In this document: positions 32,299 through 46,539 of the stretch, piece by piece
How the letters are laid out: every line of letters starts with the position of its first letter
How positions within the stretch are numbered: the stretch's first letter is position 1
NCBI GenBank assembly: GCA_934486825.1
Contig: CAKSQF010000003.1
Location: 25,771-89,770, forward strand
DNA from: an uncultured Eubacteriales bacterium
GTDB lineage: Bacteria; Bacillota; Clostridia; Oscillospirales; CAG-272
Direction of reading: 5' to 3'
DNA length: 64,000 nt
Notes under the pieces: generated by a model
Seen by the model: only the letters and a program-made list of their open reading frames with translations
Databases searched by the model: none
Told to the model about the DNA's origin: nothing
Program-made: the position numbers and the translations under genes

Positions 32299-35200
32299 TT
32301 ATACGTGTCCGAGCAGTTCTATCTGCGAAAGGGCTGTTTCGCCCGAAAATTCGATCACAACACGATCGGCGGCAAGCTTTGCCTCAAACGGACGGGTCTC
32401 GCGTCCCCAATCAAACGAAACGCCGTTCAGAGTTACCGTATTTTCGGTTTCCGAACCGTTTTTGTAGGCTTTCAGGCTGATCCGACCGACATCCTTTGCA
32501 TGCTCTGACGAGGTCAGCGTTATCATTTCTATGCTGACCCCGGATGCAAAAACAACGGTGATCCGATCGCCGTCATGTATAAGCGTTTCGGTGAGCGAGC
32601 AGTTGTCAAACAGCCTGTCGGCAAACTGAATGTCCGAGGAGATTTTTGCGTTTTCGGTCAGATCGACTGCCGGTTGTCTGTCCTTTCCGTATTCCGACAG
32701 TGAAAACGGCATTATCTTTCCGAAGTCCGACGGGGTGCTTCCCATTACAAACCGCAATTCTCCGCCCGAGGCAAGCTCATCATGTGTGACAAACAGTCTG
32801 TCAGACTTCTTTCCGTTTATCGTTACCGATCTTACATATATGTTCTCCGGGCTGTTGTTTTCGGCGACTATGTGCAGTTTTTTGCCGCCGATGTTAAGAT
32901 CAACCTCGTCAAAAAGCGGTGAGCCGATCGCGTACTGACCTGTTGCAAGACAGAGCGGATAAAATCCGAGTGCAGACAGTATAAACCATGCCGACATTTC
33001 GCCGTTGTCCTCGTCTCCGGGGTAACCCTGTCCGAAATCTCCGCCGATGTACAGTCTTGACAGCACCTCTCTTGCGTATTTCTGCGCTTTCCACGGCTGA
33101 TCGGTGAAATTGTACATGTATATAAGGTGGTGAGACGGCTGGTTCGAGTGTCCGTAGCGCCCCATTTTAACTTCTCTTGCCTCTCTCTGCTCGTGTATGC
33201 CGTCCCATTCACCGCAGGCACCGTATCCGCGGTAATATGCCTTTGTTTCGAAGATGCTGTCGAGCTTTTTCGCAAGCTCCGCGCGACCGCCGTAAAGTGC
33301 GGCAAGTCCCGCTCCGTCAAACGGAACGGACGCCGACATGTTGTAGGCATCGGTCTCGGTAAAATCCTTTCCCCAGAAGCAGGGGTCGAATTTGCCGCAG
33401 TAATTATTGTCTGATGTCAGCGACCCGTCCGCTTCTCTGCCGCGGAACCATTTGTCGCCGATATTATCGCCGCCGTCAACGAAGAGCAGGCGGTAGTTTT
33501 TTGCTCTGTTTTCAAAATATCTGCGCTCTGCGGCAAGAGCCGACTTTCTTTCGGGATCGGTTTCGTGTTCAAGCAGCAGACCCGCAAGCACGGAAATTCC
33601 GAAATCGTTGATATAACCCTCCATCGACCACGAAAATCCCTCGCGCGAGCCGGGAGTCCAGCCGAGGAATATCGATTTTTCGAGAAGCTCACGACCGCCG
33701 TCGGTCGGGGTCGGCGAGTAGACGCAGGCGTTTTTGTATGCGGCGGCGTATGCCTTTTCAATATCGAAACCGAAGTCTTTGACCGCGGCATCGGCGAAAA
33801 TGATGTCCGACGAAGTGCCTACCATGCAGTTTACTCCTCCGGGAGCCGACCAGCGCGGTATCAGCCCGTTGTCGTCGTAATGCTTCAGAAAGCCGTTCAG
33901 AAGGCGGGGCATATCCTGCGGACAAAGCAGGGAATATGCCGGCCAGCAGGTGCGGTAGGTGTCCCAGAACCCGTTGTTTATCATCATTTCGCCCTCTTCG
34001 ACCCGATCGGTGTAGGGTGAGCGGTACACATATACCGGAGCTTTGTCGGTTCCGATATTTTCGGCTGTCGAATTCGGATATTTGAAGAGGCAGTAAAGTC
34101 CGGAATAGATATTTTCAAGATCGCGCTCTGCGGCACCCTTTATGTTGTCTATGCAGGAAAGCTTGCCGTCCCAGCGGTCGGCAGCGTCGGCACAGATACT
34201 TTCAAAGGTTCTGCCGCGCAGTTCGAGATCGTGATTTTTCTTTGCCTGCCCGTATGATATGTATGATGTGGCAAAGGTCATGTATATCTTATCCGCGGAA
34301 AATGATGCGATCGCATTTTTTCCGCAGACCGCGGTCGATATCGGCTTTTCGGAGAAGGTTCCGTAGATATACACGGTCTTTGAGCAGTTGTTTTTATGGT
34401 CGGAGAAGGCGGTGAAGCTGCCGTCATCGTCAAAGGCGATGCCGCCGGACCCGTTCTGACAGTCGAAGATCACCGAATGATGCACGGCACTTTTGCCGAA
34501 CGATAACATGGCAATAAGTCCGTGATCTGTCGGGGATATCTCTATCATACTGTCTGCGGCGTCCCCGCCCTTTTCGTCAAATGCGACCGAGTAATAGTGA
34601 GCAAAAGCAAGCTCGTTTTCGTGAGCGAAAATGTTCGTCATGTCGGCTGTGGCAAAGCCCTTGCCGTCACCCGCAAGTCGGGAGGTGTTTATCATGAACT
34701 GCCATGTTCCTCTGTCGCCGATCCAGATCGACGGCTCGTGCGAGATGCCGATGCTGTCAAACCTGCGGCTGAGATAGTCGTAGTGTTTGTCGGACGCATG
34801 ATTTGTGATCGGACCGTACATGTTGAAGCCGTGCGGAAGCAGAACGGCGGGCGCGGTCAGACCGCGGGAGAATGATGAAGAGTCATTCGTTCCGCGGAGA
34901 ATGTTTATGTAGTGGCAGAGCCTCGTCCGCTCGGTCGGCTTGCGGTCGTATATCGATATGTCGTCGAAGAAGCTCTCAAAATCCGAGCTTTTGGGCGGAC
35001 CGTCGTATGAAATAACTGTCCTTGTTACCGTCTTGCCCGCAAGAGCGCCGAGCGGGACGGATATTTTGTTCCACTGGCAGACGTACAGTCTTTTTGACTT
35101 TCCCATTGAGGATGGGTCGGCATGAACGCCGTTTCCGTCGCATATACCCTTGTCCGACAGCCTGCTTCCGTCTGACAGATAAAGATCTACCGAGAAAAAT

Positions 35201-35559
35201 GACTGCGAGTAATTATAGTCGTAATTTTCTTCGGCGCGGGAGGGAAATATGTAATATTCAAGGGTGCTGTTTTCCGAGACCGTTATGTTCTGACCGTCGG
35301 CGATGACGACTTCAAAACGCATCGGTTCCTTTTCGGGATGTCCGGATATTTTCAGCACTCCATCACCCGATATGCCTGTGTGTTCGTAGCCCACAAGGCT
35401 TTTGTCGGGACCGTCGCAGACCGACAGTCGGAGGTCGCAGGGGGACGGTGCGTCGTATGTGTACGACCGTCCGGAGTCAAATGAGTCAAAAAAAAGAGTT
35501 GTTTTTTCGAAAAACTTCGGCAGAAGCTTTTCGGTGCTGTCCGATATTATGCGTTTCAT
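32299..35559 (-). CDS. GH92-family alpha-mannosidase-like protein with an extra N-terminal module and a C-terminal discoidin-like domain
   Basis: GH92 hallmarks are GDEDNGEMSAWFILSALGFYP, NGFWDTYRTCWPAYSLL and LLPHGFNMYGP. ATG 35559 follows GAAAGGA. There is no signal peptide. The ORF is 1086 aa, against a typical length of about 750. Confidence 0.8.
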   Translation of the reverse strand: MKRIISDSTEKLLPKFFEKTTLFFDSFDSGRSYTYDAPSPCDLRLSVCDGPDKSLVGYEHTGISGDGVLKISGHPEKEPMRFEVVIADGQNITVSENSTLEYYIFPSRAEENYDYNYSQSFFSVDLYLSDGSRLSDKGICDGNGVHADPSSMGKSKRLYVCQWNKISVPLGALAGKTVTRTVISYDGPPKSSDFESFFDDISIYDRKPTERTRLCHYINILRGTNDSSSFSRGLTAPAVLLPHGFNMYGPITNHASDKHYDYLSRRFDSIGISHEPSIWIGDRGTWQFMINTSRLAGDGKGFATADMTNIFAHENELAFAHYYSVAFDEKGGDAADSMIEISPTDHGLIAMLSFGKSAVHHSVIFDCQNGSGGIAFDDDGSFTAFSDHKNNCSKTVYIYGTFSEKPISTAVCGKNAIASFSADKIYMTFATSYISYGQAKKNHDLELRGRTFESICADAADRWDGKLSCIDNIKGAAERDLENIYSGLYCLFKYPNSTAENIGTDKAPVYVYRSPYTDRVEEGEMMINNGFWDTYRTCWPAYSLLCPQDMPRLLNGFLKHYDDNGLIPRWSAPGGVNCMVGTSSDIIFADAAVKDFGFDIEKAYAAAYKNACVYSPTPTDGGRELLEKSIFLGWTPGSREGFSWSMEGYINDFGISVLAGLLLEHETDPERKSALAAERRYFENRAKNYRLLFVDGGDNIGDKWFRGREADGSLTSDNNYCGKFDPCFWGKDFTETDAYNMSASVPFDGAGLAALYGGRAELAKKLDSIFETKAYYRGYGACGEWDGIHEQREAREVKMGRYGHSNQPSHHLIYMYNFTDQPWKAQKYAREVLSRLYIGGDFGQGYPGDEDNGEMSAWFILSALGFYPLCLATGQYAIGSPLFDEVDLNIGGKKLHIVAENNSPENIYVRSVTINGKKSDRLFVTHDELASGGELRFVMGSTPSDFGKIMPFSLSEYGKDRQPAVDLTENAKISSDIQFADRLFDNCSLTETLIHDGDRITVVFASGVSIEMITLTSSEHAKDVGRISLKAYKNGSETENTVTLNGVSFDWGRETRPFEAKLAADRVVIEFSGETALSQIELLGHV

Positions 35560-35713
35560 CGGCACGATTCCTTTCGTATACTGTTGTCCGTGGCAAACGG
35601 TACCTATATGTATTATAACATCCTGCCGTGCCGATGTCAACAGAGCATGCCGCGATAGTCAAAAAAGCCAAAAAATTTTTTCTGATATTTATCAAAATTG
35701 TGGCATAAGCCTA

Positions 35714-35799: not shown

Positions 35800-37038
35800 A
35801 TGAAGAAGAAGCAGTCGGGTCTGATATCTGTTTATATAAACGGTGTTTTCATAAGGAAAGATATTTCGTCTGTTGTTTCCGTTTTCGGTGACAGCAGTAT
35901 TTTTTTGAATCCGGAGCGTTTCGCTCCCGGGTCTGATATCGCGGTTTTACCGGCTTTCTGTGATGTACATGTACATTTCAGAGAGCCGGGTTTTTCATAC
36001 AAGGAGGATATCGCGAGCGGATGCGCCGCCGCCGCGAGAGGCGGGTACACCGATGTGTGCACGATGCCGAATCTTGATCCTGTACCCGATTCGGTCGAGG
36101 CGATAAAGAAACAGCTTGATATAATCGGGAAAAGCGCGAAAATCGGCGTTCATCCGTATGCCTCTATAACAAAAAAAGAGGCTGGAAGCGAAATAGTCGA
36201 TATGGAAGAGCTTGCACCCTATTGCATTGCCTTTTCGGATGACGGCAGGGGTGTGCAGAGCGAGGACATGATGCGGCAGGCGATGATAAGAGCAAAATCG
36301 GTCGGGAAGATGATAGTCGCCCACTGCGAGGATGATCGGCTCAGAGGCGACGGCTACATCCACGACGGCGACTATTGCAGAGCGCACGGACACAGAGGAA
36401 TCGTCGGTGAAAGCGAATGGCGTCAGATCGAACGGGACATAAGGCTTGCGGCAGAGACAGAATGCAGCTATCACGTCTGCCATATATCGACCGCCGAGAG
36501 CGTAAGGCTTATAAGAGAGGCAAAAGCTTGCGGGATCGATATCAGTTGTGAAACGGCACCGCACTATCTGGTTCTGAACGACAGCATGCTCGAAGAGGAC
36601 GGCAGATTCAAGATGAACCCGCCGATAAGAAGCGAAGCCGACAGGGCAGCCCTGATCGAAGGCATAGCCGACGGCACGATCGACATGATCGCAACCGATC
36701 ACGCGCCGCATGCCGCATCCGAAAAATCGGGCGGGCTTGAAAAAAGCCTTATGGGTGTGGTCGGACTTGAAACCGCTTTTCCGGTACTTTATACCGAGCT
36801 TGTGAAGAAAAACATAATTACACTTGAAAAGCTGATCGGGCTGATGTCGGTTGCGCCGCGCAGGCGGTTCGGTCTGCCGGAGCGCGGAGATTTGTGCGTG
36901 TTCGATCTCGGGGCGGAGTACACCGTCGATCCCGCCGAATTTGCGGGCAGGGGCAGAAGCACGCCGTTTGAAGGAAGAAGAGTGTTCGGAAAGAATCTGT
37001 TGACTGTATGCGGAGGTAAGATTGTATGGCAGGCATGA
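35800..37038 (+). CDS. pyrC: dihydroorotase
   Basis: DVHVHFREPG metal-binding motif, DMIATDHAPH, and pyr operon context. Confidence 0.9.
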   Translation: MKKKQSGLISVYINGVFIRKDISSVVSVFGDSSIFLNPERFAPGSDIAVLPAFCDVHVHFREPGFSYKEDIASGCAAAARGGYTDVCTMPNLDPVPDSVEAIKKQLDIIGKSAKIGVHPYASITKKEAGSEIVDMEELAPYCIAFSDDGRGVQSEDMMRQAMIRAKSVGKMIVAHCEDDRLRGDGYIHDGDYCRAHGHRGIVGESEWRQIERDIRLAAETECSYHVCHISTAESVRLIREAKACGIDISCETAPHYLVLNDSMLEEDGRFKMNPPIRSEADRAALIEGIADGTIDMIATDHAPHAASEKSGGLEKSLMGVVGLETAFPVLYTELVKKNIITLEKLIGLMSVAPRRRFGLPERGDLCVFDLGAEYTVDPAEFAGRGRSTPFEGRRVFGKNLLTVCGGKIVWQA

Positions 37039-38120
37039 AAAAGAGAAAGATAGTTTTTGAAAACGGGGAAGAATATTACGGTGAATCGTTCGGAAGCGAT
37101 GCCGAGGCGGTCTGCGAGATAGTGTTCAACACTTCGATGGTGGGCTATCAGGAGATAATCTCCGACCCGTCCTACACCGATCAGGCGATAGTGATGACAT
37201 ATCCGCTGATAGGCAACTACGGAACCGCCGACGAGGATTACGAGACCAAGCTTCCGACCGCGGGCGGACTGATTGTGAGAGAGTACAACGATCTGCCGTC
37301 GAATTTCAGATACACGAAAACGCTGTCCGAGGTAATGGAGGAATACAGGATCCCCGGAATAAGCGGAGTGGATACGCGGAAGCTTACGAGAAGTATAAGA
37401 GATGCGGGAAGCAGAAGAGTGGCGATCACCGATGCCGATACCCCGACAGAGCGCGCCGTGGAGCTGATAAGAAACACTCCTGTTCCGCACGACGCGGTCG
37501 CGAGGGTCAGCTGTAAAAAAAGATGGTATTCGAGAACCGCAAACGCCGCCTACAATGTGGTTGCGGTAGACTGCGGAATAAAGCTCAACATAATCCGCTC
37601 GCTCAATGCAAGGGGATGCAACGTTACGGTGGTTCCGTACAACACACAGCTTTCCGAGATCGAAAAAATGCGCCCGGACGGAATTTTTCTTTCGAACGGA
37701 CCCGGCGACCCGCAGGACGTCGGCGAGGTGATCGGGCTCGTCAGGCAGGTCAGGGGAAAATATCCGCTGTTCGGTATCTGTCTCGGTCACCAGCTTATAA
37801 GCCTTGCCTGCGGAGCAGAGACCTACAAGCTCAAATTCGGACACAGGGGAGGCAATCACCCGGTAAAGAATCTTTGCACCGGAAAGGTTGAGATAACATC
37901 GCAGAATCACAGCTTTGCGGTAAGAGAAGAGAGCCTTGCGGGAACCGGACTTGAAATTACGCATGTCAATCTGCTTGACGGGACGGTTGAAGGGGTCCGC
38001 GACAGAGAATCCGGGATGTTCAGCGTCCAGTATCATCCGGAAAGCGCACCCGGTCCGCAGGACAGCGCGTATCTGTTTGACAGCTTTATTGCAATGATGG
38101 AGGGAAAAGCGAATGCCTAA
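37026..38120 (+). CDS. carA: carbamoyl-phosphate synthase small (glutaminase) subunit
   Basis: FNTSMVGYQEIISDPSY, GICLGHQL catalytic Cys, and QYHPES. Confidence 0.92.
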   Translation: MAGMKKRKIVFENGEEYYGESFGSDAEAVCEIVFNTSMVGYQEIISDPSYTDQAIVMTYPLIGNYGTADEDYETKLPTAGGLIVREYNDLPSNFRYTKTLSEVMEEYRIPGISGVDTRKLTRSIRDAGSRRVAITDADTPTERAVELIRNTPVPHDAVARVSCKKRWYSRTANAAYNVVAVDCGIKLNIIRSLNARGCNVTVVPYNTQLSEIEKMRPDGIFLSNGPGDPQDVGEVIGLVRQVRGKYPLFGICLGHQLISLACGAETYKLKFGHRGGNHPVKNLCTGKVEITSQNHSFAVREESLAGTGLEITHVNLLDGTVEGVRDRESGMFSVQYHPESAPGPQDSAYLFDSFIAMMEGKANA

Positions 38121-41100
38121 GAGAACTGATCTGAAGAAAATACTTGTCATCGGCTCGGGTCCGATAGTGATCGGGCAGGCGGCGGAGTTTGACTATGCGG
38201 GAACGCAGGCGTGTCTCGCGCTCAAGGAGGAGGGTTACGAGGTAATACTCTGTAATTCGAACCCCGCGACAATAATGACCGATACGTCGATCGCAGACAA
38301 GGTCTATATGGAGCCGCTGAATCTTGAATATCTTGCAAGAATAATCAGATATGAGCGTCCGGACGCAATAGTTCCCGGAATCGGAGGTCAGACCGGACTC
38401 AATCTCGCAATGCAGCTTGAAAAAAAGGGAATTTTGCGCGAATGTAACACGGTTTTGCTCGGCACAAGCAGTGAAAGCATAGAGCGCGCGGAGGATCGCG
38501 AGCTTTTCAAGGAGCTTTGCGAACAGCTCGGCGAGCCGGTACTGCGTTCGCGGATTGCCGAAAGCATAAGCGACGGACTTCTCGCGGCGGAGGAGATCGG
38601 ATATCCCGTCGTACTGCGCCCCGCCTTCACGCTCGGCGGGACGGGCGGCGGATTTGCCGATGACCCGGACGAATGTGCCGAGCTTCTGCGCGGTGCGCTT
38701 GAACTTTCGCCGGTACATCAGGTGCTTGTCGAAAAGAGCATAAAAGGCTATAAGGAAATAGAATACGAGGTTATCAGAGACGCAAACGACACGGCGATAA
38801 CCGTCTGCAACATGGAAAACATCGATCCCGTGGGCATCCATACCGGTGACTCTGTTGTCGTATGCCCGTCGCAGACGCTCACAAACAAGGAGTATCACAT
38901 GCTCCGCGACAGCGCGTTGCGCATCATCAGGGCGCTGAAAATAGAGGGAGGATGCAATGTGCAGTTTGCGCTTGATCCGCTGTCGTTCAGATATTATCTG
39001 ATCGAGGTGAATCCGAGAGTTTCGCGCTCGTCGGCGCTTGCAAGCAAGGCAAGCGGTTACCCGATAGCGAGAGTCAGTGCAAAGATCGCCGTCGGCATGC
39101 ATCTTGACGAAATAATGATAGCGAACACTCCCGCCTCGTTCGAGCCGACGCTTGATTATGTGGTCACGAAAATGCCGCGCTTCCCGTTTGATAAATTTTC
39201 GTCGGCAAACAACAAACTGTCAACCCAGATGAAGGCGACCGGAGAGGTTATGAGCGTCGGCAGGACGATCGAAGAGAGTCTGCTCAAGGCGGTGAGATCG
39301 CTTGAGATCGGTGTCGATCATCTCTATATGAAAAAATTCGACGAAGCGGGGGATGAAGAACTGCTTTCGTACATCAAGGACGGAACCGATGACCGTCTGT
39401 GGGCAATTGCCGAGCTGATGCGCAGAGAGACCGATATGGGTATGATCTGCGAGGCAACGAAGATAGATATGCTCTTCCTTGAAAAGCTCTCCAATATAGT
39501 CAGGGAGGAAAAGAGGCTGTCGGATAATGTCGGTGATGAAAAGCTTCTTCGCGAGGCGAAGCGTATGGGATTTTCCGACCGCGCGGTCGCGAGACTCTGG
39601 AGAACGACCGAGGACGAGGTATATGCAATGCGCGAAAAGCTCGGGCTTTTCCCGGTCTACAAGATGATCGATACCTGCGCATCCGAATTTGACAGCTATA
39701 TCCCATACTTCTATTCGACCTATGAAGACGAAAACGAATCGGTGGTTTCCGACAGAAAGAAAATAGTAGTTCTCGGATCGGGACCGATACGCATAGGGCA
39801 GGGCGTGGAATTCGACTATTCGACCGTCCACGCGGTTACGACCATAAAGAAATCGGGATATGAGGCAATAATCATAAACAACAACCCGGAAACGGTGTCA
39901 ACCGACTATACCTGCTCGGATAAGCTCTATTTTGAACCGCTCTGCGTCGAAGATGTCATGAATATAATTCATCTTGAAAATCCGATCGGGATTGTCGCCT
40001 CACTCGGAGGTCAGACCGCAATAAATCTGTCCGACAGACTCGCACGGCGCGGGGTAAGGATAATAGGGACCGACTGTGAGGCGATCGACAAAGCCGAAAA
40101 CCGTGAGCTTTTCGAAAAGCTTCTTCTTGAACTCGGTATTCCGCAGCCTCCCGGAAGAGCGGTTACAAAAATCTCCGACGGACTTTGCGCGGCAAAAGAG
40201 GTCGGATATCCGGTGCTCGTGCGCCCGTCTTTCGTACTCGGAGGCAGGGCTATGCAGATAGTTGCCGACGGAGATCAGCTTTGCAGATATCTGCGCACGG
40301 CAGTTGAGATCGATGAGGATAAGCCGGTGCTTGTCGATAAGTATATCGTCGGCAAGGAACTTGAGGTCGATGCAATATGCGACGGCAGGGATGTCTTTGT
40401 GCCCGGGATAATGGAGCTTGTCGAACGCACGGGTATTCACAGCGGCGATTCTATAAGCGTATACCCGACCTTCAGCGTCAGCGACAGAGTCAGGGAAACG
40501 ATTCTTGATTATACAAGACGGCTCGGACTCGGCATCGGTATCGTCGGTCTGTACAACATACAGTTTATCGTGGACAAATCAGAAAATGTCTATATAATCG
40601 AGGTAAATCCGCGCTCGTCGAGAACGGTTCCGTTTCTCTCAAAGGCGACCGGCTTCCCGCTTGCCGATATTGCGACAAAGGTGATGCTCGGGGAGTCGCT
40701 TGCGGCTCAGAAGCTTGACCGACCGCAGCCGACGCGCAAAAACCGCTGGTACGTGAAGGCTCCCGCCTTCTCCTTCTCAAAGCTCCGCGGACTTGACGCA
40801 TACCTGTCGCCCGAGATGAAGTCCACGGGCGAGGCGATAGGCTATGACAGCAGTCTGACGAGAGCGCTTTACAAGGCGCTAAAGGCAAGCGGAATGAGCG
40901 TCACGAATTACGGAACCGTGCTTGTGACCGTTGCGGACGGCGACAAGGAGGAGGCGCTTCCGCTGATACGCAGATTCTATAATCTCGGCTTCAACATTCA
41001 GGCGACCGAGGGAACCGCGCTCTTTTTGAAGAAGAACGGGATAAGGACTCACATGCTCGGCAAGATATCCGAAGGAAGCAGTGAGATTCCCGAGGCAATC

Positions 41101-41292
41101 AGACAGGGCTATGTGACCTATGTTATAAACACGAGAGACGTAAGCTCGTCGGATGTGCTTTCGGACGGACATGAGATCAGACGCTGTGCCGTAGAAAACA
41201 ATGTTACGATGTTCACATCTCTTGATACGGTAAGGGTAATGCTCGATGTGCTTGAAGAGATGACCCTCGGCATATCGACAATCGACGCATGA
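38113..41292 (+). CDS. carB: carbamoyl-phosphate synthase large subunit
   Basis: KKILVIGSGPIVIGQAAEFDYAGTQA, a duplicated ATP-grasp halves arrangement, and a C-terminal MGS-like domain. The ORF is 1059 aa. Confidence 0.95.
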   Translation: MPKRTDLKKILVIGSGPIVIGQAAEFDYAGTQACLALKEEGYEVILCNSNPATIMTDTSIADKVYMEPLNLEYLARIIRYERPDAIVPGIGGQTGLNLAMQLEKKGILRECNTVLLGTSSESIERAEDRELFKELCEQLGEPVLRSRIAESISDGLLAAEEIGYPVVLRPAFTLGGTGGGFADDPDECAELLRGALELSPVHQVLVEKSIKGYKEIEYEVIRDANDTAITVCNMENIDPVGIHTGDSVVVCPSQTLTNKEYHMLRDSALRIIRALKIEGGCNVQFALDPLSFRYYLIEVNPRVSRSSALASKASGYPIARVSAKIAVGMHLDEIMIANTPASFEPTLDYVVTKMPRFPFDKFSSANNKLSTQMKATGEVMSVGRTIEESLLKAVRSLEIGVDHLYMKKFDEAGDEELLSYIKDGTDDRLWAIAELMRRETDMGMICEATKIDMLFLEKLSNIVREEKRLSDNVGDEKLLREAKRMGFSDRAVARLWRTTEDEVYAMREKLGLFPVYKMIDTCASEFDSYIPYFYSTYEDENESVVSDRKKIVVLGSGPIRIGQGVEFDYSTVHAVTTIKKSGYEAIIINNNPETVSTDYTCSDKLYFEPLCVEDVMNIIHLENPIGIVASLGGQTAINLSDRLARRGVRIIGTDCEAIDKAENRELFEKLLLELGIPQPPGRAVTKISDGLCAAKEVGYPVLVRPSFVLGGRAMQIVADGDQLCRYLRTAVEIDEDKPVLVDKYIVGKELEVDAICDGRDVFVPGIMELVERTGIHSGDSISVYPTFSVSDRVRETILDYTRRLGLGIGIVGLYNIQFIVDKSENVYIIEVNPRSSRTVPFLSKATGFPLADIATKVMLGESLAAQKLDRPQPTRKNRWYVKAPAFSFSKLRGLDAYLSPEMKSTGEAIGYDSSLTRALYKALKASGMSVTNYGTVLVTVADGDKEEALPLIRRFYNLGFNIQATEGTALFLKKNGIRTHMLGKISEGSSEIPEAIRQGYVTYVINTRDVSSSDVLSDGHEIRRCAVENNVTMFTSLDTVRVMLDVLEEMTLGISTIDA

Positions 41293-41306
41293 AAAGGAGT
41301 GACCGG

Positions 41307-42038
41307 ATGAAACAGGATATGTATCTGATTATACACAATAAGGAAATTGCGCCGTCGGTGTTCGAAATGACTGTCGAAGGCGACGGAACGCCGATAAAAA
41401 GACCCGGGCAGTTTGTAAATATAAAGCTCGACGGCTTTTTTCTGCGCAGACCGATTTCGGTGTGCGACTATGATGAAAAAAAGATAAAGCTGATATACAA
41501 AATCGTCGGCGGTGGAACCGAAAAGCTTGCCGGGATGAAAGAAGGAGAGAGACTTGACATGCTTGTCGGGCTCGGAAACGGGTTTGACATCCGGACTTCC
41601 GGGGATACCCCTCTTCTGATAGGCGGCGGTGTGGGAGTCCCTCCGCTCTACGGACTTTGCAAAAAACTTGTCGCAGAGGGCAAGAGACCGTCGGTGATAC
41701 TCGGCTTCAACAAGGCTGACGAAATCTTTTACGAAAAAGAATTTTCGGCACTTTCGGACAGGGTAATTATTACAACGGTTGACGGGAGCAGGGGCATAAA
41801 GGGGTTTGTGACCGCCGCGATGAACGATATCCCATACAGTTATATTTACACCTGCGGACCGAAGGCAATGCTTTCGGCGGTAAGTGCGGCGGCAAAGACA
41901 AGCGGACAGTTCAGTCTTGAAGAGAGAATGGGCTGCGGTTTCGGTGCGTGTATGGGATGCACCTGCAAAACAAAGAGCGGAGCGAAGCGGGTCTGCCGCG
42001 AGGGTCCGGTATTTGTCAGGGAGGAGATCGAATGGTGA
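41307..42038 (+). CDS. pyrK: dihydroorotate dehydrogenase electron-transfer subunit
   Basis: FAD/NAD-binding fold with GGGVGVPPLY, and a C-terminal 2Fe-2S Cys cluster CGFGACMGCTC. ATG 41307 follows AAAGGAG. Confidence 0.88.
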   Translation: MKQDMYLIIHNKEIAPSVFEMTVEGDGTPIKRPGQFVNIKLDGFFLRRPISVCDYDEKKIKLIYKIVGGGTEKLAGMKEGERLDMLVGLGNGFDIRTSGDTPLLIGGGVGVPPLYGLCKKLVAEGKRPSVILGFNKADEIFYEKEFSALSDRVIITTVDGSRGIKGFVTAAMNDIPYSYIYTCGPKAMLSAVSAAAKTSGQFSLEERMGCGFGACMGCTCKTKSGAKRVCREGPVFVREEIEW

Positions 42039-42946
42039 ATACAAAAATCAGACTGTGCGGCAGAGAGCTTGACAATCCGGTGATACCGGCAAGCGGTACA
42101 TTCGGGTACGGCTACGAATTTGCGGAGCTTTACGACATAAACTGCCTCGGGAGCCTTTCGTTCAAGGGTACGACGAGAGAAGCGCGCTTCGGAAACCCCA
42201 CGCCCCGTATTGCCGAATGCAGCTCGGGTATGCTGAACTCGGTCGGATTGCAGAATCCCGGAGTCGAAGCGGTGATCGCAGAGGAGCTTCCCAAGCTGAG
42301 AAGTTGTTTTCACAAGCCGGTAATGGCGAACGTGAGCGGATTTTCGACAGAGGATTATGTTTACACGGTCGAAAGACTGGACGGCGAAGATAATATAGGG
42401 TGGTTTGAGATAAATATTTCCTGCCCGAATGTTCACGGCGGCGGTCTGGCGTTCGGGACCGATCCGAAAAATGCCGCGTCGGTCACGGCGGCTGTCAGGA
42501 AAGTTACCGCAAAGCCGGTCATAATAAAGCTGTCGCCGAATGTGACCGATATAACCGCGATCGCAAAGGCGTGCGAGGATGCGGGAGCCGACGGCATATC
42601 GCTCATAAATACGCTTGTCGGGATGAGAATCGACCCGAAAACGAGAAAACCGATCCTTGCGGTCGGTTCGGGCGGTCTGTCCGGACCCGCAGTCAAGCCG
42701 GTTGCGGTAAACATGGTGTACAAGGTCTATGAGTCGGTAAAAATTCCGATAGTCGGAATGGGCGGCATTGCGACTGCGGAGGATGTGATCGAATTCATGC
42801 TCGCCGGAGCGACCGCGGTCGAGGTCGGCGCAGCAAATCTCGTCGATCCGTTTGCATGCAAAAAAATAATCGACCGCCTGCCCGAAGTAATGAGAAAATA
42901 TAATATACAGAGTCTTGAAGAAATAACGGGAGGAGCACACAGATGA
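42032..42946 (+). CDS. pyrD: dihydroorotate dehydrogenase 1B, catalytic subunit
   Basis: NPVIPASGTFGYG, NISCPNVHGGG, and GMGGIATAEDVIEF. The start overlaps the pyrK stop (ATGGTGA). Confidence 0.92.
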   Translation: MVNTKIRLCGRELDNPVIPASGTFGYGYEFAELYDINCLGSLSFKGTTREARFGNPTPRIAECSSGMLNSVGLQNPGVEAVIAEELPKLRSCFHKPVMANVSGFSTEDYVYTVERLDGEDNIGWFEINISCPNVHGGGLAFGTDPKNAASVTAAVRKVTAKPVIIKLSPNVTDITAIAKACEDAGADGISLINTLVGMRIDPKTRKPILAVGSGGLSGPAVKPVAVNMVYKVYESVKIPIVGMGGIATAEDVIEFMLAGATAVEVGAANLVDPFACKKIIDRLPEVMRKYNIQSLEEITGGAHR

Positions 42947-43665
42947 AGGATGTAATTATTGCCTGCGATTTTCCGGGCAGAACCGAATGTCTTGACTTTC
43001 TTGACATGTTCAGAGAAGAAAAGCCGTTTGTCAAAATCGGAATGGAGCTGTTCTATTCGGCGGGACCTGACATAGTGCGGGAGATAAAGGGCAGGGGTCA
43101 CAGAATATTTCTCGACCTCAAGCTGCACGATATCCCGAATACCGTGAAAAGATCGATGGCGGTCCTTTCGGGACTTGATGTTGACATGTGCAACCTCCAC
43201 GCCGCGGGTACGATCCCGATGATGCGTGCGGCGCTTGAAGGACTTACACGTCCCGACGGCACAAGACCGCTGCTTATCGCGGTCACACAGCTCACATCGA
43301 CAAGCGAGGAAGCAATGCACAGCGATCTGCTTATAGATGGGGATATGCAGAGCGTCGTTATGCACTACGCAAAAAATGCGGCGATCGCGGGACTTGACGG
43401 AGTGGTCTGCTCGCCGCTCGAAGCGGAAAGCGTGCACCGGGTCTGCGGAAGCGGGTTTCTTACGGTTACCCCGGGAATCCGGTTTGCAGACGGCGAAAAG
43501 GGCGACCAGTCGAGGGTCACGACACCCGAAAAGGCAAGAGAACTCGGAAGCGATTATATAGTGGTCGGCAGACCGATAACGGCGGCAGCCGATCCTGTTA
43601 TGGCATACAGACGCTGTGTGCGCGAATTTGTCGGAACAAAAACAGATATAAACGAAAGGATATGA
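42943..43665 (+). CDS. pyrF: orotidine-5'-phosphate decarboxylase
   Basis: IIACDFP..., FLDLKLHDIPNTV, and IVVGRPIT. Confidence 0.92.
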   Translation: MKDVIIACDFPGRTECLDFLDMFREEKPFVKIGMELFYSAGPDIVREIKGRGHRIFLDLKLHDIPNTVKRSMAVLSGLDVDMCNLHAAGTIPMMRAALEGLTRPDGTRPLLIAVTQLTSTSEEAMHSDLLIDGDMQSVVMHYAKNAAIAGLDGVVCSPLEAESVHRVCGSGFLTVTPGIRFADGEKGDQSRVTTPEKARELGSDYIVVGRPITAAADPVMAYRRCVREFVGTKTDINERI

Positions 43666-43670
43666 GCAAA

Positions 43671-44330
43671 ATGACAGACACAAAGAAGCTGATTGCAAAA
43701 GATCTTCTGAAGATAGGAGCGGTATTTTTCCGTCCCGAAGAGCCGTTTACATGGGCAAGCGGAATAAAGAGTCCGGTGTATTGCGATAACAGACTGACAC
43801 TGACCGCGCCCGATGTGAGAAATGACGTTGAAAATGCGCTTGCCGAAACGGTAAAAACATTTTATCCGGATGCCGAGGTTCTGATGGGTACGTCAACCGC
43901 GGGAATTGCTCACGCCGCAATTACCGCACATCTGCTCGGTATGCCGATGGGATATGTAAGATCGGGCAATAAGGATCACGGGCGTCAGAACCGTATCGAA
44001 GGGCGGCTTGAACCCGGGCAGAAGACAGTGATAATCGAAGATCTTATCTCTACCGGCGGAAGCGTCATAGAGGTGGCTGAAGCGCTCAGAGAGGCGGGAG
44101 CCGAGGTTCTCGGAATTGCCTCGATCTTCACATACGGCATGAAGAAGGGAATCGACCGCCTCGGAGAGGCGGGACTTAAAAACGTGAGCCTGACAGATTT
44201 TGATTCGGTCGCCGGGGTTGCCGCCGAGACGGGATATATAAAGAAGGAAGATATTGCGCGGCTGATCGCGTTCCGCGATAATCCGTCGGATGAAAGCTGG
44301 ATAAACCGTGCGGGGAGCGGGAACAGATGA
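43671..44330 (+). CDS. pyrE: orotate phosphoribosyltransferase
   Basis: [22 protein letters not shown] and the PRPP motif [12 protein letters not shown]. An alternative ATG at 43662 overlaps the pyrF stop. Confidence 0.9.
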
Positions 44331-45403
44331 AGAGAAGCCTTATAGATATATCAGAGCTGACTGTCGAAGAGATCGGCGGACTTATATCGACTGCCGAAGA
44401 TATAATTGCGCATCCGTCGGCTTACAGCGAAAGGTGCAAGGGGAAAAAGCTTGCAACACTCTTTTTTGAGCCGTCAACGAGAACAAGACTCAGCTTTGAG
44501 GCGGCAATGTATGAGCTCGGCGGGAATGTGATAGGATTTTCGGAAGCAAAAAGCTCTTCGGCATCAAAAGGGGAGAGCGTGGCGGACACGGCGAAGGTGA
44601 TCTCCTGCTATGCCGATATAATCGCAATGCGCCACCCAAAGGAGGGCGCGCCGCTTGTTGCGGCAGTCAATGCATCGATACCTGTTATAAACGCGGGGGA
44701 CGGCGGTCACTGCCATCCGACCCAGACGCTCGCCGATCTTTTTACAATATACAGAGAAAAAGGCGGATTCGACGGGCTTACCGTCGGGCTGTGCGGCGAT
44801 CTTAAATTCGGACGCACCGTTCATTCGCTTATAAATGCGCTCATACGCTATAAAAATGTCAGATTCGTGCTTATTTCTCCACCCGAGCTGAGGCTCCCGC
44901 AGTATATGAAGGAAATTCTCGACGGAAAAGGTGTTGAGTACACCGAAACGATCGGGCTTGACGAAGTCATGGCATCCCTTGATATCCTTTACATGACGAG
45001 GGTGCAGCAGGAAAGATTCACGAGCGAGGAGGAATACCTCCGTCTCAGGGATTCGTATATACTGACTCCCGAAAAAATGAAGCTCGGCGGACCGGGATTG
45101 CGTGTCCTTCATCCGCTCCCGCGGGTCAATGAGATCAGCGTTGAGGTTGACGGCGATCCGAGAGCCTGCTATTTCAAACAGGTTGAAAACGGCAAGTACA
45201 TGCGCATGGCGCTTATTCTCATGCTGCTTGCATCGGAGGAGACACCCGAAAATCCGCTTCTTTCGCCCGATCTTGTGAGGATCGGCAGATGCACAAATCC
45301 GCGCTGTATATCTTCGGTTGAGCAGGAGCTGCCGCCGCTGTTCAGATATACCGGGGACAATCGGCAAAACCGTCGGTGTATTTATTGCCAGTCAAAGGGT
45401 TAG
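44327..45403 (+). CDS. pyrB: aspartate carbamoyltransferase catalytic chain, fused at the C-terminus to a PyrI-type zinc domain
   Basis: Catalytic motifs are [21 protein letters not shown] and HPLPRV. The last roughly 45 aa, [35 protein letters not shown], match the CxxxxC...CxxC Zn domain of the ATCase regulatory chain. Confidence 0.85.
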
Positions 45404-45453
45404 TTAATTTTTTGTTAAATCTATTGACTTTTCGCGCATAATATATTATATAT

Positions 45454-45489
45454 ATTGCATACGAACATATTGCATACGAACATACGAAC
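45454..45489 (+). repeat. tandem direct repeat (15 bp x2 plus a partial copy) between promoter and RBS
   Basis: ATTGCATACGAACAT occurs at 45454-45468 and 45469-45483, then ACGAAC. The submotif CATACGAAC appears 3 times. A TTGACT -35 lies at 45424-45429. Confidence 0.7.
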
Positions 45490-45516
45490 TTTAATAAACA
45501 GATTGGAGCAATTATT

Positions 45517-46092
45517 ATGATAGATAACGCTTTGGGAAGAAAACGGCTCGGACTCGGAGTCAGGTTGACGGTAAAAACAGTGATAGCTCTTGCGGTTGTG
45601 GGACTTGCGGTCGCTCTGCCTCAGCTTGCACATCTCGCGATCGGACCCGGCGCGGGAATAAGATTTTTGCCGATGTATCTGCCGGTAATTATCGGCGGGT
45701 GTATGCTCGGTTGGCGCTTCGGCGCGGCTGTCGGCATGGCTTCACCGCTTGTAAGCTATCTTCTGACGTCGGCTGTCGGAACCGCAATGCCTGCGGCATC
45801 GAGACTTCCTTTCATGATGCTTGAGCTTTGCGTATTTGTGGCAGTCTGCGGCATGTTCTCAAAAAAGATCGCAAAAAACAGCATGATGTCATTGCCCGCG
45901 GTGCTCTGCGCACAGTTGTGCGGCAGATCGGCATTCCTTCTTTCGGTCGTGCTGTTCGGAAAAAGCGGATCGCTGACCGCGGAGATTGTTCTCGGACAGA
46001 TAAAGAGCGGCATACCCGGACTTGTCTGTCAGGCAGTGATTGTTCCGCTTGTTGTTGTCGGAATGAAGAAGCTTCTTGACAAAGTAGGATGA
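45517..46092 (+). CDS. ECF-transporter S-component-like membrane protein, substrate unknown
   Basis: About 6 TM helices. The motif FLPMYLPVIIGGCMLGWRFGAAVGMASPLVSYLL is typical of ECF substrate-capture subunits. No EcfA/EcfT genes are nearby. Confidence 0.55.
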   Translation: MIDNALGRKRLGLGVRLTVKTVIALAVVGLAVALPQLAHLAIGPGAGIRFLPMYLPVIIGGCMLGWRFGAAVGMASPLVSYLLTSAVGTAMPAASRLPFMMLELCVFVAVCGMFSKKIAKNSMMSLPAVLCAQLCGRSAFLLSVVLFGKSGSLTAEIVLGQIKSGIPGLVCQAVIVPLVVVGMKKLLDKVG

Positions 46093-46113: not shown

Positions 46114-46539
46114 ATGAACGATATAGAGATAGCAAGGAAGAATCTTGTCGGACACACGCTCTCTCTCTGTAAGGACGGCTATGTTGTAACGAGCGGCGAG
46201 CGCGGAGTTTATCCTATGATAAACATGCTGCGCATGGGTCACGACGTGTCGGGATATTCTGCGGCGGATAAGGTCGTGGGCAAAGCGGCGGCAATCCTCT
46301 TTGTGCAGGGCGGCATTGCCGAGGTCTACGCCGACGTTATATCCGAAAGCGGACTTGAGCTTCTGCGCTCACACGGTATACCCGTCGGTTACGGAAAGCT
46401 TGTCGATAAAATAATGAACCGTGACGGCACAGATATCTGTCCTATGGAAAAGCTGGTTGAGAATGAAAACGATATACATACCGGTGCGATAAAGATTACC
46501 GACAAAGCTATAGAAATGCGAATGAAAAACAGGTCATGA
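46114..46539 (+). CDS. DUF1893 (TM1506-like) protein
   Basis: GHTLSLCKDG..., DKVVGKAAAILFVQGGIAEVYADVISESGLELLRSHGI and CPMEK are as I recall for the DUF1893 family. Confidence 0.55.
   Translation: MNDIEIARKNLVGHTLSLCKDGYVVTSGERGVYPMINMLRMGHDVSGYSAADKVVGKAAAILFVQGGIAEVYADVISESGLELLRSHGIPVGYGKLVDKIMNRDGTDICPMEKLVENENDIHTGAIKITDKAIEMRMKNRS

Follow-up and report, generated by a model that had tools for sequence, protein, structure and literature searches.

A complete pyrimidine operon in the 64-kb stretch of genomic DNA analysed here (the window) ends with a gene in which the catalytic chain of aspartate carbamoyltransferase (ATCase), PyrB, is joined to the zinc domain of the regulatory chain, PyrI, and the genome from which it comes carries no match to the PyrI allosteric domain. 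ATCase is the textbook allosteric enzyme. As judged from its sequence, the gene product is a predicted ATCase of class B, the type of E. coli and archaea whose catalytic chains are partnered by PyrI, and it carries the regulatory-chain zinc domain in cis. The reading that we favour, with a probability of roughly 0.6, is that this domain acts in cis as a structural clamp for a catalytic trimer dependent on it, and that nucleotide feedback of the PyrI type has been lost.

Architecture of the fused protein

The fused gene is a 358-aa open reading frame (44327..45403, forward strand) composed of a complete PyrB, a linker of 12-14 residues and a PyrI_C zinc domain; the region singled out in the original prediction, 45269-45403, spans residues 315-358 and the stop codon. 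Pfam places OTCace_N at residues 3-142, OTCace at 149-299 and PyrI_C at 319-356. The NCBIfam aspartate carbamoyltransferase model TIGR00670 scores 348.7 bits against a cut-off of 236.95, with residues 3-301 covering model positions 1-303 of 304. The motifs for carbamoyl-phosphate and aspartate binding (STRTR, HPTQ, RTVHS and HPLPR) are visible in the translation, and S50, T51, R52 and T53, H130, P131, T132 and Q133, R163, T164, V165 and H166, and H262, P263 and P265 are invariant in 57 fused proteins. The best relatives of the catalytic part in the PDB are the ATCases of P. abyssi (1ML4, 52% identity, target-normalised TM-score 0.92), E. coli (45-46%, about 0.9), M. profunda and M. jannaschii. 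In this structure search only about 300 columns align, all to catalytic chains, and no solved chain was found to contain both the catalytic part and the tail in cis.

That PyrB is fused to the zinc domain of PyrI had been predicted from the sequence, and this stands: the strings quoted at the time all match the open reading frame, and what the tail carries in cis is a true zinc domain of PyrI. Searched against the PyrI C-terminal profile (PF02748, gathering cut-off 23.4 bits), as had been proposed, the whole protein scores 30.5 bits and the 56-aa tail alone 35.1 bits. The tail also matches positions 94-136 of the 142-position PyrI model NF002063 and can be aligned to PDB regulatory chains of S. 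acidocaldarius and M. jannaschii over their zinc domains. All four cysteines of the E. coli domain, likewise predicted, are found: Cys322, Cys327, Cys351 and Cys354 (codons at 45290, 45305, 45377 and 45386) correspond by alignment to Cys109, Cys114, Cys138 and Cys141 of the E. coli r chain and form a Cx4C...Cx2C pattern of putative zinc ligands. Models of the entire regulatory chain are far from their cut-offs, with TIGR00240 at 14-19 bits against 148.55 and NF002063 at 31-36 bits against 171, and the model for T. maritima-type PyrB-PyrI fusions, NF009916, reaches 120 bits against a cut-off of 800, the catalytic part alone being matched. Coordinates are collected in Table 1.

Table 1. Genes of the pyr operon and parts of the fused gene, in window coordinates
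Feature	Position	Strand	Evidence
pyrC (dihydroorotase), first pyr operon gene	35800..37038	+	Pfam Amidohydro_1, DHOase
carA (carbamoyl-phosphate synthase small chain)	37026..38120	+	Pfam CPSase_sm_chain, GATase
carB (carbamoyl-phosphate synthase large chain)	38113..41292	+	1059-aa ORF; L010 homologue with CPSase_L domains
pyrK (DHODH electron-transfer subunit)	41289..42038	+	Pfam DHODB_Fe-S_bind, NAD_binding_1
pyrD (dihydroorotate dehydrogenase)	42032..42946	+	Pfam DHO_dh 289 bits; gene calls in L170
pyrF (OMP decarboxylase)	42943..43665	+	Pfam OMPdecase
pyrE (orotate phosphoribosyltransferase)	43662..44330	+	Pfam Pribosyltran
PyrB catalytic part, residues 1-303	44327..45235	+	OTCace_N, OTCace; TIGR00670 349 bits; 1ML4 match
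Linker, residues 304-315	45236..45271	+	Alignment with L010 pyrB+pyrI; tail listings; model pLDDT 80-83
PyrI zinc domain, residues 316-358	45272..45400	+	PF02748 35.1 bits; four Cys, N324 and E332 invariant (57 fused proteins); columns compared with full PyrI
Stop codon of fused gene, no pyrI after	45401..45403	+	ORF and gene calls

Genomic context and absence of the allosteric domain

The fused gene ends a complete operon, pyrC-carA-carB-pyrK-pyrD-pyrF-pyrE-pyrB', in which the start of pyrD is taken as that of the 304-aa gene call in identical loci. The gene that follows its stop codon encodes an ECF S-component and is not pyrI. The intergenic stretch 3' of the fused gene (45424-45516) contains a tandem 15-bp repeat, two copies of ATTGCATACGAACAT followed by ACGAAC, which lies upstream of the ECF S-component gene (45517-46092) and of a DUF1893/TM1506 gene (46114-46539). 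Just upstream of the operon, on the opposite strand, is a gene for a 1112-aa glycoside hydrolase of family 92 (32299-35640, reverse strand). Because an Rfam search of the 64-kb window returned no matches, the window offers no evidence of a PyrR-type attenuator.

The absence of an allosteric domain from the operon, noted in the original prediction, extends to the whole genome. When the genome (2.07 Mb, 96% complete) was searched in all six frames, PF01948, the PyrI allosteric domain, gave no match (best E value 0.6), whilst the same search was positive in all seven control genomes that carry PyrI. No PF01948 match was found by Pfam in the fused protein itself, and the tail of this protein is the sole PF02748 match above the cut-off in the genome.

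A frameshifted or complete pyrI had been named as one of the findings that would defeat the prediction. The identical 358-aa protein was found with the same neighbours in at least eight independent metagenome assemblies, which excludes an assembly error or frameshift. The nine gene copies (the window and eight assemblies) differ by synonymous changes alone, a pattern that is uninformative because the copies were chosen for an identical protein. In principle the tail could be the non-functional remnant of a decaying pyrI, or an artefact of assembly or frameshift, and the Pfam score of the window's zinc domain, at 30-35 bits, does fall below the 50-60 bits of full PyrI domains. This explanation is nonetheless extremely improbable and was rejected: besides its recurrence in independent assemblies, the architecture occurs in more than 100 species, amongst them the cultured Ruminococcus albus 8, and its zinc ligands and core residues are invariant across proteins that share 47-73% overall identity.

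Distribution of the fusion

The fusion is not an oddity of this one genome, since a taxonomic survey places it in at least 29% of the species of the window's order as well as in other Clostridia and in Bacteroidales. Amongst 401 species-representative genomes of the order, PyrI_C was found in 276 and the allosteric domain in 158, all of them within the 276; the remaining 118 (29% of the 401), which have the zinc domain only, fall in 21 of the 25 families of the order. When 88 of these 118 were rechecked, the PyrI_C match lay within an open frame of 351-486 aa in 86, and PyrB was upstream in the same frame in all 46 rechecked loci for which the DNA was examined. Twenty-one genomes of the order without a Pfam PyrI_C match were also examined, 12 of which lack PyrB; the other nine have a PyrB of the fused type (49-61% identity), in every case with a divergent CxNxxC...CxYC tail that Pfam misses. 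A 'naked' PyrB of the fused type, devoid of a zinc domain, was not seen amongst these nine Pfam-missed genomes, on which this negative result rests.

The divergent PyrB-fused tails (L192-L200; for example CRNPKCITRTEPYLP...CGYCDAKL) escape PF02748 at an E value of 1e-4 or below, and the Pfam-based counts are underestimates because of this. By extrapolation, the true share of the fusion in the order is higher than 29%, roughly four in ten. Beyond the order, 6-7 of 71 genomes with PyrI_C in an even sample of the class are fused, and in a sample of the phylum the window is the sole fused case. Carriers include Faecousia, Christensenellaceae, Bulleidia, Alistipes, Paludibacteraceae and Muribaculaceae, and the cultured carriers are R. 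albus 8 (L277) and Hominimerdicola aceti; PF01948 is absent from R. albus 8, H. aceti and Ca. Alistipes faecavium.

No PyrB match of any kind was found in eight genomes of the order (G021, G414, G075, G147, G265, G389, G020 and G042), six of which reach a completeness of 98% or more and two of which are from the window's own genus. Four others (G003, G004, G033 and G041) have best PyrB matches of just 30-36% identity, which were taken as ornithine carbamoyltransferases. Pyrimidine auxotrophy may be common in the order.

Conservation and predicted structure of the zinc domain

Across the 57 fused proteins, which are 47-73% identical to that of the window, C322, N324, C327, E332, C351 and C354 are invariant, and I328, L335, F339 and Y353 are conserved in at least 90%. 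The columns of the domain were compared between 103 fused proteins and 97 full PyrI chains. Conserved in both sets (E. coli numbering) are C109, N111, C114, I115, E119, R137, C138, Y140, C141 and E/D142, together with a phenylalanine at column 126, and the four cysteines are invariant in all 103 fused and 97 full domains. A second group of positions, V106, I107, K110, L128, D130 and Y136, is conserved only where the allosteric domain is present; thus conservation of L128 falls from 0.99 in full to 0.24 in fused chains and that of Y136 from 0.99 to 0.42. The zinc-domain core is under purifying selection, and constraint has weakened in the fusions at this second group. In the E. coli enzyme, V106 forms part of the hydrophobic interface between the two domains of the r chain, and N111 and its neighbours belong to the catalytic-regulatory interface. 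The conservation pattern fits a domain that would still bind zinc and the catalytic chain and would no longer pack on an allosteric domain.

An AlphaFold2 model built from the 57-sequence alignment has a pLDDT of 92.1 and a pTM of 0.92, with local pLDDT values of 80-83 in the linker and 81-91 in the zinc domain, and the tail forms three short strands (E316-318, E338-342 and E348-351). The model is consistent with a tail that is a small folded zinc-domain module, ordered and docked.

Strong conservation of the tail despite the disappearance of the allosteric function could also mean that the domain has been re-used, either as a docking site for an unrecognised regulator or as a sensor of zinc supply or thiol oxidation acting through the four cysteines, and the surface that once faced the allosteric domain would have been free to evolve. 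We regard such re-use as improbable: the positions conserved in the fusions are those of ordinary PyrI, with no new conserved surface, and no conserved partner gene lies 3' of the fusion, the downstream genes varying by lineage (here the ECF S-component). The structural clamp remains the preferred role.

Probable origin by deletion

The nearest PyrB proteins (82-84% identity; 83% for those on contigs L010 and L011) are 303-306 aa in length and have no tail. On the L010 and L011 contigs the same gene order, carB-pyrK-pyrD-pyrF-pyrE-pyrB, recurs, and pyrB is overlapped at its end by a 138-aa pyrI that encodes both domains. Aligned with the PyrB and PyrI of L010, the window protein lacks the N-terminal domain of about 95 residues, and the retained piece begins, by E. 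coli numbering, at about residue 101-103, where the zinc domain has its structural boundary. This numbering follows the E. coli r-chain sequence, checked by its length (153) and the cysteine positions 109, 114, 138 and 141. The fusion would have arisen from an overlapping pyrB-pyrI pair through an in-frame deletion that took away the pyrB stop codon and about 95 codons of the allosteric domain, so that a short linker was all that stayed between the two parts. Measured from where the last PyrB helix ends up to the first cysteine, the linkers comprise 17-24 residues, ten cases at 9 being taken as motif mis-hits, and their sequences are not alignable between lineages. The original prediction had read the fusion as an intermediate architecture; a derived product of pyrB-pyrI deletion fits better, given the operon and alignment comparison, the patchiness within the window's genus, the linkers and the fused protein P0002 described below.

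A remnant of the allosteric domain was sought in the linker and the idea was dropped, as there was a weak 'AS' match only, in a stretch whose shortness precludes a judgement. Amongst close relatives, one full-length PyrB-PyrI fusion of 437 aa (P0114; 76% identity) without a linker is encoded at L012:1021-2334, on one 2.4-kb contig, and could be real or could reflect a one-base error at the overlapping stop and start.

One origin or several

The fusion is unevenly distributed even amongst close relatives. The window's genus contains 18 species with PyrI_C, 14 with a separate pyrI and four with the fusion, in addition to two without PyrB, and its family comprises 11 full, nine fused and six with neither. 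The four fusions of the genus form two pairs whose linkers are unrelated. In the PyrB tree the window falls in a clade (SH-aLRT 97) of 11 separate and three fused rows, and parsimony requires eight state changes. Repeated origin is not claimed from the tree alone, because the placement of every fused protein in one clade is not rejected by an AU test (p 0.325). In the fused protein P0002 the zinc domain is 70-74% identical to those of full PyrI, against at most 62% to any fused one, and keeps residues typical of full PyrI. Taken with the linkers and the patchiness at genus level, P0002 makes more than one origin likely. The deletion event of the window itself is undatable because its zinc domain is equidistant (51-53%) from fused and full relatives.

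Lateral transfer probably also contributes to the spread of the fusion, to judge from the Bacteroidales carriers, which share 59-67% identity with the window's catalytic part, and from the nearest relative of the window's PyrB; much of the patchiness could have this cause. That nearest relative is a metagenomic PyrB with a separate pyrI (L010, 83%), whilst congeners with full-length PyrB (compared in L037 and L178-L191) reach 69-74%, the exception being the sister species G409, at 96.7% and with the same linker. These identities suggest lateral replacement of pyrB in the window's lineage.

Function and assembly

In the proposed mechanism, the zinc domain would have been kept as a zinc-stabilised clamp that holds the catalytic chain, stabilises it and tunes its activity, and it would have been retained because this type of catalytic trimer depends on a zinc clamp. 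Control by CTP, UTP and ATP through PyrI would have been lost. A zinc-domain fragment isolated from the r chain of E. coli was reported by Markby, Zhou and Schachman (PNAS 1991) and by Peterson et al. (Protein Sci 1994) to bind tightly to catalytic trimers, to change their kinetics and to make them more heat-stable. The expected particle would be a (catalytic-Zn)3 trimer, possibly paired into a hexamer.

How such pairing might be achieved bears on a second account of the fusion, which takes up the idea of the original prediction that the zinc domains join trimers. According to this account the fused zinc domains bridge two trimers into a D3 hexamer that keeps substrate cooperativity without nucleotide control, and they might do so by the T-state contact known from E. 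coli, in which the r-chain zinc domain touches the opposing trimer. Two-trimer holoenzymes are formed by catalytic chains of the type seen here, as in the relatives from P. abyssi, E. coli, M. profunda and M. jannaschii, and the E/D142 beside the last cysteine is conserved in fusions as in full PyrI. In E. coli, however, the two trimers are joined by an r-r dimer built from allosteric domains, which the window protein lacks, and the weaker conservation in fusions of several positions that full PyrI keeps would agree with some contacts having been lost. By analogy with that enzyme, E. coli-style bridging of trimers without a dimer of allosteric domains is unlikely, and a hexamer held by contacts other than the r-r dimer is possible; overall we consider the bridging account unlikely, at about one chance in four, and retain the clamp as the preferred reading.

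Comparison with known ATCases

Three prokaryotic forms of ATCase are recognised in reviews, those with DHOase, those with PyrI, either separate or fully fused, and bare trimers, and a 2015 family review gives three prokaryotic ATCase types only. The class B holoenzymes (E. coli PyrB6-PyrI6 and those of P. abyssi, M. jannaschii, S. acidocaldarius and M. profunda) share the catalytic subtype of the window protein (45-52% identity, TM-score 0.9) and a homologous zinc domain with the same four cysteines and equivalents of N111, I115, E119 and Y140. Unlike in these enzymes, the zinc domain of the window protein is covalently attached to the C-terminus of the catalytic chain and PF01948 is absent from the genome, because of which an r-chain dimer of the known form, and the control by CTP, UTP and ATP that goes with it, are impossible there. 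The fused PyrB-PyrI of Thermotoga maritima likewise combines catalytic and regulatory parts in one chain, the catalytic part first, but it is described as keeping the whole regulatory chain and as allosteric (Chen et al. 1998, as cited in PMC4581275), and the corresponding model NF009916, with a length of 525, includes the whole regulatory chain, whereas the window protein is without the allosteric domain. The unregulated trimers of class C (Bacillus subtilis type) resemble the fusion in that both are predicted to lack PyrI nucleotide allostery; the B. subtilis-type chain is, however, a much more remote relative (149 bits, class B chains scoring 280-317) and has no zinc domain.

The nearest functional analogue is the engineered complex of the E. 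coli trimer with an isolated 70-residue zinc-domain fragment, which has the same composition and no allosteric domains, and because of this analogy a stabilised enzyme that is not regulated by nucleotides is predicted. The engineered complex is a laboratory construct of separate chains, whereas the arrangement in the window is natural, covalent and widespread; the fusion is thus the natural counterpart of the classic engineered complex.

The expectation that the architecture was undescribed agrees with a literature search, which found no description of a PyrB-zinc-domain architecture. Enzyme and domains are both familiar, and domain databases already display the architecture, although genome annotation currently names such fused proteins plain 'aspartate carbamoyltransferase'; the fused form itself is apparently undescribed.

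Implications

A wider proposal, which we hold tentatively and at slightly less than even odds, is that PyrB-Zn fusions constitute a fourth natural quaternary class of prokaryotic ATCase. This class would be the commonest form in an order of gut Clostridia (Ruminococcus albus, Faecousia, Christensenellaceae), would have reached Alistipes and other Bacteroidales probably by transfer, and would probably have arisen on more than one occasion through deletions that removed the allosteric domain. On this proposal, the failure to see a PyrB of the fused type without a zinc domain would imply that the primary, ancestral job of this domain is structural and that nucleotide allostery is a dispensable add-on. 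A natural, abundant form with the zinc clamp only separates, in vivo and in more than 100 species, the two jobs of the regulatory chain, namely the binding and stabilising of the trimer and the sensing of nucleotides. It also suggests that many gut anaerobes make pyrimidines without feedback of the PyrI type, which matters for their metabolic models.
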